DNA of 64,000 nucleotides from an uncultured Leptospirales bacterium (GTDB lineage Bacteria; Spirochaetota; UBA4802; UBA5550), in NCBI GenBank assembly GCA_964529415.1, contig CAZGWD010000002.1:222089-286088 (forward strand). The letters are read 5' to 3'. The notes beneath the pieces are model-generated. The model was not told where the DNA came from and did not search any database. It saw only the letters and a list, made by a program, of their open reading frames with translations. A program made the translations under genes and the position numbers. Shown one piece after another: positions 10,363 to 64,000 of this stretch. Positions within the stretch are counted from its first letter, which is position 1, and every line of letters begins with the position of its first letter.

Positions 10363-10396
10363 TCCTCCCCATTGCCAAGGGGGAGACAGAGGGGGT
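10363..10396 (+). repeat. G-rich hairpin repeat (CCCC-ATTGCCAA-GGGGGAGACAGAGGGGGT) upstream of hisS
   Basis: Same family as 61457-61487 and 61851-61883, with an inverted copy at 61367-61407. Confidence 0.55.
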
Positions 10397-10416
10397 CTAA
10401 AAAAACGGAGAAATAA

Positions 10417-12296: not shown

Positions 12297-12336
12297 AAAC
12301 TTTTTATAAAATTAAAGTGTTTATATGTGTAAGTAA

Positions 12337-12441
12337 GGGAGATAAAAGAGATAGAAGAGATGATGGAGATAAAAAAATTTAAGAAGAATTTATATAAAAA
12401 AAATCATTCCCCCGATCTCCTCAATCCCCACATCCCCTGCT
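12337..12441. repeat. Second copy of the MITE-like purine-rich element, inverted relative to 23241-23372
   Basis: GGGAGATAAAAGAGATAGAAGAGATGATGGAGATAAAAAAA...CCCCCGATCTCCTCAATCCCCACATCCCCTGCT. Confidence 0.45.
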
Positions 12442-23138: not shown

Positions 23139-23240
23139 TATAAAAAAATAGTTGATTAAATGAGCATGGATAATTCTTATTTAATAAAAGTTCCCCAACC
23201 CCAAGGCATATTTTATCTGTATCTTTATATAATAAAAGAT

Positions 23241-23372
23241 TCAGGGGATAGGGAGATAAAAAAGGAGAGATGGCAGGATATTTATTTTTTTTAAATTATA
23301 TCATTTATTATCATTGAATTTATTAGAATAACTTAAAAAATTATCTCCTTATCTCTTCCATCTCCATATCTC
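23241..23372. repeat. MITE-like purine-rich element with imperfect terminal inverted repeats
   Basis: GGGGATAGGGAGATAAAAAAGGAGAGATGG ... AT-rich core ... ATCTCCTTATCTCTTCCATCTCCATATCTC. A related copy lies in inverted orientation at 12337-12441. Confidence 0.5.
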
Positions 23373-60205: not shown

Positions 60206-61327
60206 ATGAAACCAATTATAAAAAAAATATTAATTCTGATATTATCATTTACTGTTACCGCTTCCGCAAAAGACAAACCGGATATGGAATTATTTAATAA
60301 AATAAAAAGCTCTACAGATAAAAGGGAAACAGCTGAAAATCTTTCAGCCCGGTTTTTAAAAAATTTTCCTGACAGCGTTTATGTTCCGGACGTTAAAATG
60401 ATCCTGGCTGATATCGACCCTCACCCTTCTTCTGCAGTTAAAAAATACAGGGCTGTAATTGATAAATACAAAAACTACAGTAAAAAGGATACTGCATATT
60501 TAAAAATTTCAGAGATACTGCATATTCAATCCAGATGGGATGAGCTTTTAAAAATATCATCAGAGGCATTAAGAAAATTTCCTCAAAGCGGATACACTGT
60601 CAGCTTCAGGGTTTTTTCTGTTTTGTCTCTTCTCAATTCAGGAAGGTTCGATGAAGCAGACAGGGCATGCAGAATTTTAAATAACGAAAATCACGGGTAT
60701 GAAGATTTAGCCTCGTCTCTGATTATAATGTCTTACATAATTAAAAATGAAACCGGCCATTCAAAGGAATATTTTTCGCTATTATCGGAACTTGCAGCAG
60801 GGTTCAGCTCATCAACGAACCATCCTGTAATACTGTATCTCCTTGCCGATTATTATGAATCGAGGAAAAACTACAATAAGGCTTACAGCGCGTATTCCGA
60901 TATTATTGGACTTTATCCAAAGTCTCCTGAAGCATCCATATCCTCAGAAAGAATAAAAAAAATTCAGAAATTTAACCCGAAAAAAACAGCGTACCTTCCG
61001 GAAAATAATTATAAAGAAGATTCAACTTCAATAGACATTAAGCCCGAGAATGAAATTGACAATTCAGATCCTGAAACATATTATTCTGTATCTGTCGGAA
61101 GTTTTTTTGATAAAAAAGAAACTCTGGAAATAAAAAAAATTACCGACAAAATTGGCGACTCGGTAACAGTTAAAGTAAAAAACGGATATATTATTTATCT
61201 TGGAAGATACTCCACACAGGATGAGGTCATTACAGCCAAGATCCGTCTTGCCGAGGAATACGGAATTAATGGAAACATAGTTCGCGTATCCGGCGGCAAA
61301 GATAAACGATATATATACGGAGAATGA
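60206..61327 (+). CDS. TPR-like repeat protein with a C-terminal SPOR (peptidoglycan-binding) domain
   Basis: Signal peptide, helical-repeat body, and C-terminal YSVSVGSF...YIIYLGRYSTQDEV... Confidence 0.55.
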   Translation: MKPIIKKILILILSFTVTASAKDKPDMELFNKIKSSTDKRETAENLSARFLKNFPDSVYVPDVKMILADIDPHPSSAVKKYRAVIDKYKNYSKKDTAYLKISEILHIQSRWDELLKISSEALRKFPQSGYTVSFRVFSVLSLLNSGRFDEADRACRILNNENHGYEDLASSLIIMSYIIKNETGHSKEYFSLLSELAAGFSSSTNHPVILYLLADYYESRKNYNKAYSAYSDIIGLYPKSPEASISSERIKKIQKFNPKKTAYLPENNYKEDSTSIDIKPENEIDNSDPETYYSVSVGSFFDKKETLEIKKITDKIGDSVTVKVKNGYIIYLGRYSTQDEVITAKIRLAEEYGINGNIVRVSGGKDKRYIYGE

Positions 61328-61366
61328 AAATTATTTACTTGATAAAAGAATCGACCGAAGGAAAAT

Positions 61367-61407
61367 ACCCCCTCTACCCTGCGGGCATCTCCCCCTTGGT
61401 AAGAGGG
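61367..61407 (-). repeat. G-rich hairpin repeat, inverted copy with an 11-nt insertion
   Basis: The reverse complement CCCTCTTACCAAGGGGGAGATGCCCGCAGGGTAGAGGGGGT aligns to the family consensus. Confidence 0.5.
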
Positions 61408-61441
61408 AGAATCAACTTAATACAGAATTAATTGATTAATT

Positions 61442-61900
61442 TTGCTCGAAAACACTTTCCCCCTTACCAAGGGGGATGAAAGGGGGTTTTTGGTGACTCT
61501 AGTTTACAATAGAAAGACCGAAAAAGAAAAACGTAGAATTTTAAGAAATGACATGACAATTGCAGAAAATACTATCTGGCTGGAATTAAAGGAAAAAAAA
61601 TTTAATGGAATAAAGTTCAGAAGGCAATTCAGTATAGGCCCATATATTGCAGATTTTTATTCACCAAAAATGAAACTTGTAATTGAAATAGACGGCAGTT
61701 CACATTCTGAAATTGATGCTATAGAATATGATGAAGTAAGAAATAAATATATTGAGTCATTAGGAATAACAATCATCCGTTTCAAAAATTATGATGTTAT
61801 GAATAACATGGAAACAGTACTTGATATATTAAAACAAAAGATTCAAAGTCTCCCCCCTTACCAAGGGGGGACGGAAGGGGGGTATGACAATAGATTCTAA
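61442..61900 (+). CDS. DUF559 endonuclease-like protein (Vsr/restriction-endonuclease-like fold)
   Basis: RRILRNDMTIAENTIWLELK...FRRQFSIGPYIADFY...LVIEIDGSSH...IIRFKNYDV. The likely real start is the GTG at 61493, after an AAGGGGGT SD supplied by the flanking repeat. Both ends of the track ORF are translated from G-rich repeat copies. Confidence 0.7.
   Translation: MLENTFPLTKGDERGFLVTLVYNRKTEKEKRRILRNDMTIAENTIWLELKEKKFNGIKFRRQFSIGPYIADFYSPKMKLVIEIDGSSHSEIDAIEYDEVRNKYIESLGITIIRFKNYDVMNNMETVLDILKQKIQSLPPYQGGTEGGYDNRF
61457..61487 (+). repeat. G-rich hairpin repeat (TTCCCCCTTACCAAGGGGGATGAAAGGGGGT). It supplies the SD for the DUF559 gene.
   Basis: Direct repeat of 61851-61883. Confidence 0.6.
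61851..61883 (+). repeat. G-rich hairpin repeat (TCCCCCCTTACCAAGGGGGGACGGAAGGGGGGT). It supplies the SD for mutS.
   Basis: Direct repeat of 61457-61487, ending 1 nt before the mutS ATG. Confidence 0.6.
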
Positions 61901-64000
61901 AATGACACCGATGATGAAACAGTACTTTGAGATTAAAAAGAATCATCAGAGCGAAATACTGTTTTTCAGAATGGGCGACTTCTACGAAATGTTTTTTGAG
62001 GATGCTGTAATTGCATCCAAGATACTCGACATTGCGTTAACGTCGCGTCAGAATGATGTTCCCATGTGCGGAATTCCATATCATGCTGCAGAAAGCTATC
62101 TTGTGAGACTCATCAAGGCCGGAAAGCGCGTTGCTATCTGCGAGCAGCTTGAAACCGTTCCTACAACCGGAACTATTGTAAGAAGAGAAGTTGTAAGGAT
62201 AATCACACCCGGCACTGTTGTTGAATCAAACATGCTCCAGGGAGATGACAATAATTTTCTTGCATCAATTATAATTACTGCAGATGAAATCGGCCTTGCG
62301 TTTGTTGACATATCAACCGGGGATTTTTTCATCATATCCGGCAAAAAATCCATTGATGTTTTCCGCGGGGAAATATCGCGCTTCAACCCGGGTGAAGCAG
62401 TTCTGCATACCGACTCCCCTGATGAGGATATTTTCATAGAATATATTAAACTGAAAAATATTCCAATATACAGAATCAACGACTGGCTATACGACAGAAA
62501 TTATATGGAAAAAGTTATTCTCGGAGCATACGGGATTAATAATATAAAAGGCCTTGGCCTTACGAGCGATATTGAAATTGTTACTGCAGGAGCTGCTCTT
62601 CAGTATCTCATTGAAACGCAGAAAAAAACACTAAGCCATATCAAATATCCGAAAAAAATTTCAACTGCAGACAGGATGATCCTTGATGATGCAGCCATAA
62701 GCAGCCTTGAGATTACATCAAACCAGCAGGATGGATCCAGAAACAGAACGATTTTTTCCATTCTCAATAAAACGAAAACACCAATGGGAAGACGCGCTCT
62801 TGAACGGAACCTGCTCGAGCCTCTTTTAAATCAGAATGAAATTGAAAAAAGGCTCGAACTTGTGCAGTATTTTTTTGAGTTCCACAGTTTTACCGGACAG
62901 ATTCAGGAAAGATTAGACGGCATCTATGATCTGGAAAGACTCATATCCAGATTCACAATCAACAAGCCTATGCCGAGAAATTTTATAGCATTGAAAAATT
63001 CCATTAATGAATCTCTCAAAATAAAACAGCTCCTGTTAAACCAGCCAGTTGATAATCTTCATTTAATTGCAGAAAAAATTCCGGATATCAGCAGCCTTGC
63101 TGAATATATTGAAAAAGCTGTGGATGATGATCCGGCAATCAGCCCGGAAAACGGCAGGGTTATAAGAGCCGGTTTTAATCCTGATCTTGACAGACTCTAT
63201 GAATTAAAGGAAAACGCAAATGCCTGGATTTTAAAATATCAGGAAACTGAAAAAATACGCCTGAACATCCCCACACTTAAAGTTAAATACAATAAAATAA
63301 TCGGATATTATATTGAGATCACTAAAGCCCAGAGCGCGGGAATTCCGGCTGACTACTACAGAAAACAGACTCTGCTCGGAGCTGAAAGATATACAACAGA
63401 TAAGCTCAGGGAATTTGAAACTGATGTTCTGTCATCATCGGAAAAAATCATATCTCTTGAAAAAAAAGAAATAGAAAATATCCGCATTGAAATTCTGAAA
63501 AACAGGGAAGCGCTTCAGCTTGCCGCATCTGGTGTAGCTGAAACCGACTTCCTATGCTCGCTTGCATCATCAGCAATAGAAAATAAATTCATACGCCCTG
63601 TTTTTACAAATGACGGATCAACCAGAATTACAGACGGACGCCACCCTGTTGTAGAAAAATATTATACTAAAGAAATATTTATTCCAAACGACATTTACTT
63701 TGATTCAGAAAAAAGCCTCATTAAAATTATCACAGGTCCGAACATGTCCGGCAAATCAACCTATATCAGAATGGCTGCTGTAATTCAGCTCATGGCGCAG
63801 GTTGGTTCATTTGTTCCGGCATCATCAGCTGAAATTTCAATTGTGGACAGAATATTCACCAGGATAGGCGCATCAGACAATATCTCCAGAGGTGAATCAA
63901 CTTTTCTTGTTGAGATGAATGAGACAGCAGGCATACTTAACGGAGCAACTGATAGAAGCCTTATAATCATGGACGAGATCGGCAGAGGCACAAGCACGTA
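61884..64000 (+). CDS. mutS: DNA mismatch repair protein MutS, N-terminal ~700 aa; the gene continues past the window end
   Basis: MTIDSKMTPMMKQYFEIKKNHQSEILFFRMGDFYEMF N-terminus. The open frame runs to position 64000 through ...GPNMSGKSTY...IMDEIGRGTST (Walker A/B). It is absent from the ORF track because there is no in-window stop. Confidence 0.9.
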   Translation, partial: MTIDSKMTPMMKQYFEIKKNHQSEILFFRMGDFYEMFFEDAVIASKILDIALTSRQNDVPMCGIPYHAAESYLVRLIKAGKRVAICEQLETVPTTGTIVRREVVRIITPGTVVESNMLQGDDNNFLASIIITADEIGLAFVDISTGDFFIISGKKSIDVFRGEISRFNPGEAVLHTDSPDEDIFIEYIKLKNIPIYRINDWLYDRNYMEKVILGAYGINNIKGLGLTSDIEIVTAGAALQYLIETQKKTLSHIKYPKKISTADRMILDDAAISSLEITSNQQDGSRNRTIFSILNKTKTPMGRRALERNLLEPLLNQNEIEKRLELVQYFFEFHSFTGQIQERLDGIYDLERLISRFTINKPMPRNFIALKNSINESLKIKQLLLNQPVDNLHLIAEKIPDISSLAEYIEKAVDDDPAISPENGRVIRAGFNPDLDRLYELKENANAWILKYQETEKIRLNIPTLKVKYNKIIGYYIEITKAQSAGIPADYYRKQTLLGAERYTTDKLREFETDVLSSSEKIISLEKKEIENIRIEILKNREALQLAASGVAETDFLCSLASSAIENKFIRPVFTNDGSTRITDGRHPVVEKYYTKEIFIPNDIYFDSEKSLIKIITGPNMSGKSTYIRMAAVIQLMAQVGSFVPASSAEISIVDRIFTRIGASDNISRGESTFLVEMNETAGILNGATDRSLIIMDEIGRGTST

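Follow-up and report, generated by a model that had tools for sequence, protein, structure and literature searches.

DUF559 nuclease genes flanked by intrastrand triplex motif repeats: a cassette conserved in many phyla and a possible enzyme-repeat partnership

In the 64-kb stretch of Leptospirales DNA analysed here (the window), a short gene of the DUF559 nuclease family lies between the gene of a TPR/SPOR protein and mutS (both assigned by Pfam) and is bracketed by copies of a G/C-rich repeat. The repeat is a class II purine-motif intrastrand triplex motif (TM) of the BoxC/PIT/TMECO kind, belonging to a different sequence family, and the DUF559 gene with its flanking TMs is a conserved cassette in many phyla. 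The architecture of the repeat, the mirror covariation within it, its association with the gene, the phylogenetic breadth of that association and the fact that relatives differ in having the gene are direct observations. The pairing of gene and repeat is the new part; the kind of repeat was already known. We give about even odds (a probability of roughly 0.5) to the reading that the short DUF559 proteins are the enzyme partners of the TM repeats, in a partnership resembling that of REP (repetitive extragenic palindrome) sequences and RAYT (REP-associated tyrosine transposase) proteins.

BoxC/PIT/TM repeats have been known since the 1990s, and Hoyne et al. are said to have described PIT elements in 2000 as class II intrastrand triplex motifs. 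To our knowledge they have not been linked to a function, an enzyme or a mechanism of spread, and we know of no agreed role for DUF559, which is a very large family.

The repeat and its mirror third strand

Four copies of the repeat are present in the window, against a chance expectation of ~0.05-0.2, and three of them bracket the DUF559 gene 5' of mutS. The copies and the gene, with the basis for each, are:

61367-61409, minus strand: inverted, slightly degenerate TM copy with a long linker (pattern matching, sequence reading)
61458-61488, plus strand: TM copy directly 5' of DUF559 (pattern matches, triads read from the sequence)
61493-61900, plus strand: DUF559 nuclease gene (predicted Vsr fold, PD-(D/E)XK), 135 codons, GTG start (Pfam, homologue alignment)
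61851-61884, plus strand: TM copy at the DUF559 3' end, directly next to mutS (pattern matches, triplex-rule finder)
10363-10397, plus strand: solitary TM copy 20 nt 5' of hisS (pattern matches, triplex-rule finder)

The core CCCCTTACCAAGGGGGA is matched at 10368-10384 (+), 61390-61406 (-), 61460-61476 (+) and 61854-61870 (+); including palindromic re-hits this gives 6 matches, compared to 0.05 expected from dinucleotide shuffles. A pattern consisting of the hairpin arm and a second G-run matched the three plus-strand copies in four overlapping placements (0.06 expected), and a strict triplex-rule finder returned exactly these three from the 64 kb, compared to 0.17 in simulated windows. A preliminary description of this DNA had placed four copies here, two of them as direct copies on either side of the DUF559 gene, and both statements hold: the recurrence is far above that in shuffles, and the open reading frame (ORF) matching PF04480 lies between the two direct copies. 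The folding energies of the hairpins are unexceptional compared to shuffled sequences (z -0.1 to -2.7), and hairpin stability was dropped as an argument. Since the hairpins alone are not unusually stable, the significance of the repeats lies in their recurrence and mirror symmetry. The repeat was also rejected as a described RNA, as no Rfam family reached its gathering score in 61300-61950, where only chance-level matches with E up to 5 were obtained.

In the copy upstream of the gene, a pyrimidine arm (Y-arm) TCCCCCTT (61458-61465), the loop ACC and a purine arm (R-arm) AAGGGGGA (61469-61476) are followed by the linker TGAA and by a mirror (reverse-Hoogsteen) strand AGGGGGTT (61481-61488), with all 8/8 triads allowed (A·A-T, five G·G-C and two T·A-T). 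The downstream copy is built in the same order from Y-arm TCCCCCCTT (61851-61859), loop ACC, R-arm AAGGGGGGA (61863-61871), linker CGGA and mirror strand AGGGGGGTA (61876-61884); 9/9 triads are allowed, and the last predicted triad takes in the A of the mutS ATG. The copy near hisS has R-arm AAGGGGGAG, linker ACA and mirror strand GAGGGGGT, with an imperfect, bulged Y-arm; hisS has its own GGAG ribosome-binding site in addition. Read on the minus strand, the inverted copy consists of Y-arm CTCCCTCTT, loop ACC and R-arm AAGGGGGAG, then a 14-nt linker containing a small CCC/GGG hairpin, and finally the mirror strand GAGGGGGT(A). In plus-strand terms the hairpin occupies 61390-61408, the linker 61376-61389 and the complement of the mirror strand 61367-61375. 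Its stem contains one G-T pair, and the mirror match is 9/10 compared to 6/10 for a direct match.

The mirror relation was assessed with hairpin units taken from the flanks of 80 DUF559 loci, of which 89 non-redundant units were scored by the triplex rule (G may face G-C, and A or T may face A-T). When the third segment was compared with the reversed purine arm, the units' own tails scored 0.888, whereas tails permuted among the units gave 0.765 +/- 0.009 and reached at most 0.798 in 2000 permutations. Reading the third segment as a direct repeat gave 0.787, and the mirror reading was better than the direct one in 58 units, tied in 28 and worse in 3. At least 12 distinct arm variants covary with their third segments, for example:

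purine arm AAGGAGGGG, third segment GGGGAGG
purine arm AAAGGGGAGG, third segment AGGAGGGG
purine arm AAGGGGAAAA, third segment AAAAGGGG
purine arm GGGGAGAGGG, third segment GGGTGAGGGG

A second G-run acting as a direct repeat, and pairing alternatively with the C-arm in an attenuator-like switch, was rejected since the mirror reading fits far better. The hairpin and second G-run recognised in the preliminary description are present, but it had missed that the G-run is the mirror of the purine arm. Its term REP-like is strictly not applicable, as there is no GTAG and a mirror third strand is found instead. From the base order, the third strand is predicted to be able to fold back onto the hairpin as a purine-motif DNA triplex.

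The class II motif is defined by the order Y-arm, loop, R-arm, loop and reverse-Hoogsteen strand (Hoyne 2000; ITxF, Holder 2015), and in ITxF by 6-15-nt stems in which no more than one mismatch is allowed, by the triads G·G-C, A·A-T and T·A-T, and by loops of 1-6 nt. The copies at 61458-61488 and 61851-61884 have this order with such stems and triads, as does 10363-10397 save for its bulged Y-arm. The loops of the three plus-strand copies (3 nt and 3-4 nt) are within the limit, whereas the 14-nt second loop of the inverted copy exceeds it; variants whose long linker contains a mini-hairpin are also found repeatedly in other phyla. Like the BoxC/PIT/TMECO elements, the present repeats are G/C-rich, intergenic and composed of Y-arm, loop, R-arm, short loop and mirror purine strand, and in both cases singlets occur together with inverted doublets of two sub-types at loci that are rearranged between close relatives. 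In E. coli, doublets of type A and type B TMs have been reported, and TM loci are unusually rearranged between strains (PMC4666352). The window copies differ from these elements in sequence (TCCCCCTT/AAGGGGGA, 8-9 triads) and are outside the TMECO/BoxC pattern, as CCCTCNCCC N3-6 GGGNGAGGG N3 GGGNGAGGG had no match in the 64-kb window. They further differ in the over-long second loop of one copy and in bracketing a DUF559 gene, whereas no enzyme was reported by Holder et al. (2015), who found no transposase, integrase or common flanking gene near TMs (PMC4666352).

The DUF559 gene and its association with the repeats

The 80 DUF559 loci represented one genome per species and had been picked by protein pattern alone, and TMs were called in them with the sequence-agnostic triplex-rule finder. 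A TM was present within 150 bp of the gene in 73/80 loci, upstream in 57, downstream in 65 and on both sides in 49. TM density per kb was 9.4 within 150 bp of the gene, 1.0 at 150-500 bp and 0.13-0.14 further out, compared to 0.02 in simulated sequence. A stricter C4/G4 detector, used as a second method, gave the same picture. With this detector the third strand pointed toward the gene in 44/47 hairpins within 100 bp upstream, and 43/58 hairpins within 100 bp downstream were inverted; among TM pairs bracketing the gene, [+ gene -] was the most frequent arrangement. The gene is intergenic, in contexts that differ between loci, and has whole repeats on its flanks.

In many loci TMs of two types flank the gene, and the TM type tracks the DUF559 protein clade across phyla. 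The BoxC-like TM goes with DUF559 cluster 8, the cluster nearest to E. coli YcjD, in loci labelled Omnitrophota, Zixibacteria, Clostridia, Planctomycetia and others. Distant DUF559-like domains from viral contigs served as a negative control and were without such hairpins, save beside the three closest full-length relatives. A phage origin was rejected, as the viral contigs hold only distant nuclease domains.

The association was also approached from the repeat. A metagenome scan with the exact TM of the window gave 91 stretches, from which 80 loci were fetched. DUF559 was found in 4/80 of these window-type TM loci, always less than 100 bp from the TM, and the other 76 held solitary copies or doublets, i.e. 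the pattern is one of many repeats and few genes. One metagenome genome (Ga0209906; loci L090, L116, L121, L122, L127, L132, L133, L139, L143, L152, L159 and L165) contains at least 14 dispersed copies of the window-type motif inside a ~100-bp repeat with conserved flanks GCTTAATTAAACCGAAGATAGAACCCCCGGCTGTCGCCGT...CTTCTATTTAATTCCACCTAGCTACTTA. Around the genes there were also gene-less doublets, [TM+][TM-], whose ends are of two different types, and alternating arrays resembling bacterial interspersed mosaic elements (BIMEs).

The protein encoded in the window matches Pfam DUF559 (PF04480) with E = 2.7e-32 and 111.3 bits (cut-off 20.6) over residues 27-134 of the 152-aa ORF. NCBIfam PRK09767 (YcjD) scores 79.6 bits, below the equivalog cut-off of 218, and the protein is therefore a family member and not a YcjD equivalog. 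The family comprises 23,394 clusters (at 50% identity) at E <= 1e-3 and 9,237 at E <= 1e-10, mostly short, single-domain proteins. An AlphaFold2 (AF2) model (pLDDT 87) matched NGO0050 (3HRL, E = 3e-7), 3R3P, PvuRts1I and 1VSR/1CW0 in Foldseek, and the sequence matched 3HRL in the PDB with E = 8e-19. D54, E65 and D67 are invariant among 21 homologues, and H71 is nearly so. With a predicted Vsr-like fold and a conserved acidic/His catalytic set, the nuclease looks intact, and the Vsr-like fold proposed for it earlier is borne out as far as Pfam, model, Foldseek matches and conserved residues can indicate. The G+C content of the gene (28%, compared to 38% in the window) hints at a foreign origin. 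Caulobacter VsrA, a DUF559 protein, causes DNA damage and an SOS response in vivo when ScmA cytosine methylation is missing (PMC12907096), so DUF559 proteins can be active nucleases. DUF559 is listed, without comment, among the gene families enriched for predicted programmed inversions in one study, an enrichment that flanking inverted TMs would explain.

The top structural matches of the DUF559 model included several mitoribosomal large-subunit proteins (Toxoplasma, Tetrahymena), which suggests that the fold may have been recruited into organellar ribosomes. Membership of DUF559 in a defence system was not supported: matches to PADLOC models were weak, at the level of the fold, and confined to nuclease domains within larger proteins, the best being partial (E = 1e-6).

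The nearest relatives of the fold raise the question of a homing-type selfish gene, a free-standing DUF559 which cuts TM sites and, with the repeats as short homology, copies itself into or beside them, the TMs being its landing pads and spread by an unrelated process. This is the main rival of the proposed partnership, and we regard it as unlikely, though it deserves more weight than the others considered below. The catalytic domain of the homing endonuclease I-Bth0305I (EDxHD) is a Foldseek match to the model (E = 2e-4) and, with NGO0050, the closest in fold, and PHROG gave weak matches to homing endonuclease families. A selfish-gene flavour is common to both, the DUF559 genes in TM-selected loci all adjoin a TM, and the gene-less doublets resemble unoccupied sites. 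Against this, the gene is flanked by whole TMs and not by two halves of one site, and the multiplication of the TMs is left without explanation. A homing gene would be located within an intron or intein, or would interrupt its own recognition site in a conserved gene; DUF559 lies in none of these, and the protein has no additional DNA-binding domains.

The N-terminus 'MTxIFNxK' of 20 homologues aligns to the GTG at 61493, and the Pfam domain begins 5' of ATG 61553, both supporting the GTG start. The deposited annotation (P0001, 115 aa) begins too late, at ATG 61553, whereby ~20 conserved N-terminal residues are lost. The G-run of the upstream TM ends 6 nt 5' of the GTG, a normal Shine-Dalgarno distance, and probably is the ribosome-binding site of DUF559, as had been suggested earlier together with this start codon; the homologous N-termini and the spacing bear out both. 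A recognisable Shine-Dalgarno sequence at similar spacing precedes about half of the window genes. At the other end, the core domain ends near 61843 and the stop codon is at 61898-61900, and the final ~16 codons come from reading through the downstream TM into the start region of mutS.

Many database homologues have spurious N- or C-terminal tails ('PLTKGE', 'SPPARGRYRGG', 'PPYEGGVGGG') which are translated stop-free repeats. Gene calling through such repeats often makes DUF559 ORFs too long or too short, as in the deposited annotation here. A 377-aa representative (P0231) contains three DUF559 stretches and may be either tandem cassettes read as one ORF or a genuine multi-domain form.

The TMs could instead be cis-acting parts of the DUF559 transcript, i.e. 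untranslated-region elements consisting of a 5' hairpin with a Shine-Dalgarno sequence and a 3' stabiliser or terminator, with solitary copies being look-alikes or leftovers of deleted genes. In favour, the upstream G-run lies 3-65 nt 5' of the start codon and is at Shine-Dalgarno distance in 6/21 loci, as it is in the window, the ORF often terminates inside the downstream TM, and one copy is terminator-like by score, on the minus strand. Neither an RNA hairpin nor a Shine-Dalgarno sequence, however, has any use for a third strand with mirror symmetry, and RNA reportedly does not form purine-motif triplexes. PIT elements were without promoter or terminator activity (PMC4666352), and TMs are found in either orientation and as arrays. 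Solitary copies are far more numerous than genes and are not placed before ORFs: among 84 of them, the G-run preceded an ORF start in 10 cases compared to 12 at a control position. Ribosome binding as a general role of the TMs was rejected on this count and on the variable spacing, and the cis-acting explanation, which fits poorly, appears improbable.

The mutS junction and its relatives

The neighbourhood of the cassette contains two further features:

61339-61366, plus strand: promoter-like site TTGATA, 16 nt, GAAAAT (inference only)
61884-64000, plus strand: 5' part of mutS, which runs off the window (Pfam; first ATG and leader conserved in relatives; surroundings of the element and no part of it)

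The mutS ATG is at 61884, not 61885, and the downstream repeat abuts it; the 1-nt gap given between them in the preliminary description does not exist. The DUF559 ORF overlaps mutS by 17 nt (61884-61900) in a different frame, and this overlap may couple translation of the two genes or interfere with initiation at mutS. The promoter-like site lies mostly in a stretch 3' of the TPR/SPOR gene that is conserved in 4/4 relatives, and the variable region of TMs and DUF559 starts right after it. The site could possibly be shared by DUF559 and mutS, and since it precedes the variable region, variable elements may sit in the mutS leader.

In a close relative (L001, 88-92% DNA identity in the flanking genes) mutS follows straight after the TPR/SPOR gene, without DUF559, and a more distant relative (L002/L003) has the same junction, again without the gene. 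L001 keeps TM fragments at both edges, 'ACCCCCTCT' at the left one and 'TACCAAGGGGGGACGGAAGGGGGGTATG' at the right one, so that both breakpoints lie inside TMs, and between them has ~215 bp of another, MITE-like repeat (MITE, miniature inverted-repeat transposable element). The downstream TM is identical in L001 from 61859 onward, and L002 shares only ACGGAAGGGGGGT. The spacer of L002 contains a different complete TM (TCCCCCTTCGGGGGATTTAGGGGGT) and other hairpins. Comparison of this junction in relatives, which had been proposed as a search for an empty site, thus gave two relatives without DUF559 but no clean empty site. The presence of the gene differs between relatives, by gain or by loss, and the spot turns over quickly. 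A site that differs between relatives would suit a homing gene as well.

The MITE-like repeat is AT-rich and ~155 bp long, and is present at 23221-23372 in the window and at 6216-6371 in L001. Its arms are inverted, purine-rich and pyrimidine-rich (AGGGGATAGGGAGATAA... / ...TTATCTCTTCCATCTCC). The window copy is 83.6% identical to the filler of the TPR/SPOR-mutS spacer in L001, and a weaker match lies at 12321-12371. In L002, positions 2810-2900 contain further C-run/G-run hairpins of other types (CACCCTTATCAAAAGAGGGA; AAGCCCCCCAACCCCCCGGAGGTGGGCTT), and this spacer appears to gather several kinds of small structured elements. The gene-less doublets with two ends described above resemble MITEs in being like non-autonomous copies of a gene-bearing element, with the difference that no target-site duplications, defined termini or known transposase fold were found here.

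The G-run that serves as the ribosome-binding site of mutS, 'ACGGAAGGGGGGTATG', is common to the window, L001 and L002, and one relative has it without an adjacent hairpin. As it is conserved in relatives without DUF559, it was not donated by the arrival of the cassette, and on this comparison it would be older than the cassette, or at least independent of it. The preliminary description had pictured a selfish cassette of nuclease and REP-like repeats which now provides the mutS ribosome-binding site. The general idea of a selfish nuclease-repeat cassette stands, with absence from two relatives and a pairing found across phyla, while the REP-like label and the donated ribosome-binding site do not.

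The position beside a mismatch repair gene brings up a host-repair function, in which DUF559 would be a Vsr-like endonuclease linked to repair or methylation and working with MutS, with the repeats incidental. The earlier idea that the cassette is important for supplying translation signals to mutS belongs here too. The predicted Vsr fold, the overlap with the start of mutS, the promoter which the two may share and the behaviour of Caulobacter VsrA agree with this. The fold is common to this protein, Vsr and VsrA, the catalytic residues are similar, and all are probably nicking DNA endonucleases. However, mutS was within 5 kb of DUF559 in 0/80 homologous loci, and the adjacency here is therefore incidental; a functional link between DUF559 and mutS was rejected on this ground. 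In the two relatives mutS is present and DUF559 is not, the G-run before mutS is retained where the cassette is missing, and the cross-phylum link to TMs would be left unexplained. No match to the Vsr family model PF03852 was among the Pfam matches at E <= 0.01, and the window protein differs from Vsr in being short, single-domain and linked to TMs, not to a methylase, its immediate neighbours being the TPR/SPOR gene and mutS. This explanation likewise fits poorly, and we consider there to be little chance that it is correct.

Enterobacteria and the proposed partnership

In E. coli K-12 a degenerate TM lies over the stop codon of ycjD, and a full TMECO is found ~170 bp downstream. The homologue in Enterobacter asburiae, at a different chromosomal site, also has a TM over its stop codon, with a second TM 10 nt later. 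Because the stop codon is inside a TM at two different enterobacterial loci, gene and TM appear to travel together, a point against the homing explanation. In the ycjD-fabI region of K-12 (locus L085, 5200-5420) there is a partial second copy of the ycjD 3' end (TGGAGACGGTGCTGGAGAATATTC...), then GGGTTAGGGG and then the full TMECO. This looks like what is left of an earlier cassette, or of a duplication that took place at the repeat.

Close YcjD homologues occur in Escherichia, Shigella, Enterobacter, Kluyvera, Klebsiella and related genera. Salmonella was absent from the named homologues in the top 120, and no TMECO was found in Salmonella by Holder et al. (PMC4666352). The ycjD gene is single-copy in 3378/5426 complete E. 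coli genomes. It is reported in phylogroups A, B1 and C (and in ST69 and ST182), with eefRABCD in its place elsewhere (PMC12817139). TMECO counts per strain were taken from Holder's supplementary tables (PMC4666352). The contrast rests on these published counts and on the published phylogroup statements for ycjD. Strains are grouped below by what we take to be their phylogroups:

A, B1 and C (MG1655, 55989, W, HS, BL21 and others): 19-30 TMECOs
B2 (CFT073, UTI89, IHE3034, S88 and others): 1-2 TMECOs
D, E and F (Sakai, 042, UMN026, IAI39): 6-15 TMECOs

The numbers fit a dependence of the TMs on ycjD. That they track the presence of the gene speaks against homing, although targeting would also fit. 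In our own search, 1-27 TMECO-like places were found per E. coli genome, with a median of 15. The single TMECO-like match in E. coli AVS0247 (locus L260, 2501-2544) lies between zntA and tusA and may be an old, fixed survivor.

The organisation resembles that of REP/REPIN sequences and RAYT (TnpA-REP), a system reportedly described by Nunvar in 2010, Bertels and Rainey in 2011 and Ton-Hoang in 2012. In both systems short structured repeats occur as singlets, inverted doublets and arrays, a genome typically has one cognate gene, which is repeat-flanked, the repeat type covaries with the clade of the protein, and few repeats are found where the gene is missing. The likeness is organisational only: the enzyme here is predicted to be a Vsr-fold PD-(D/E)XK nuclease and there it is an HUH Y1 transposase, and the repeat here has a mirror third strand, whereas GTAG and a palindrome are found there.

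In a partnership of this type, DUF559 would recognise the hairpin, triplex or cruciform form of its cognate TM and nick at it, after which repair, recombination or template switching would spread and maintain TM singlets, doublets and arrays. The DUF559 gene would move along with the spreading TMs. In the window the cassette appears to sit in the mutS 5' leader region. Its purine third strand resembles a Shine-Dalgarno sequence by chance; it probably serves as the ribosome-binding site of DUF559, and coincides with an older one of mutS.

Several observations weigh against the partnership. That DUF559 acts on TMs, and so causes their spread, is what we infer from the association, and a gene targeting TMs as landing sites could equally give that association. 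No stable TMECO triplex was detected in vivo by dimethyl sulfate (DMS) footprinting, although TMECO forms a triplex in vitro (Holder et al. 2015, PMC4666352). The D, E and F strains have 6-15 TMECOs, yet come from phylogroups in which eefRABCD reportedly replaces ycjD, and a contrast by phylogroup represents very few independent evolutionary events. Neither target-site duplications nor sharp element ends were found in the comparisons of relatives and paralogues; paralogous cassettes within a genome are old (74-79% identity), with fuzzy ends and no sharp boundaries. The orientation bias of the TMs is not absolute, as some loci, the window included, have direct copies or doublets on both sides, and the 64-kb window holds just one solitary copy.

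Neither 'endonuclease' nor 'ycjD' occurs in the main text of PMC4666352, and no paper linking DUF559 or ycjD to TMs was found in the open-access literature, the subscription literature being outside the search. The cross-phylum pairing gives the TM repeats and DUF559 each a candidate partner. More tentatively, and with somewhat less confidence than in the partnership as such, we propose that the short DUF559 proteins, YcjD included, may be structure-specific nucleases whose natural substrate would be the triplex or hairpin of BoxC/PIT/TM repeats. With the repeats they would then make up an unrecognised cross-phylum mobile system, REP/RAYT-like in organisation and based on a PD-(D/E)XK fold and a triple-helical recognition element. 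Both the role of the repeats and that of the protein can be tested directly in E. coli K-12, which has ycjD and 23 TMECO copies. If the nuclease does read the triplex, it would be one of the rare instances in bacteria of a non-B DNA structure acting as a specific biological recognition element.

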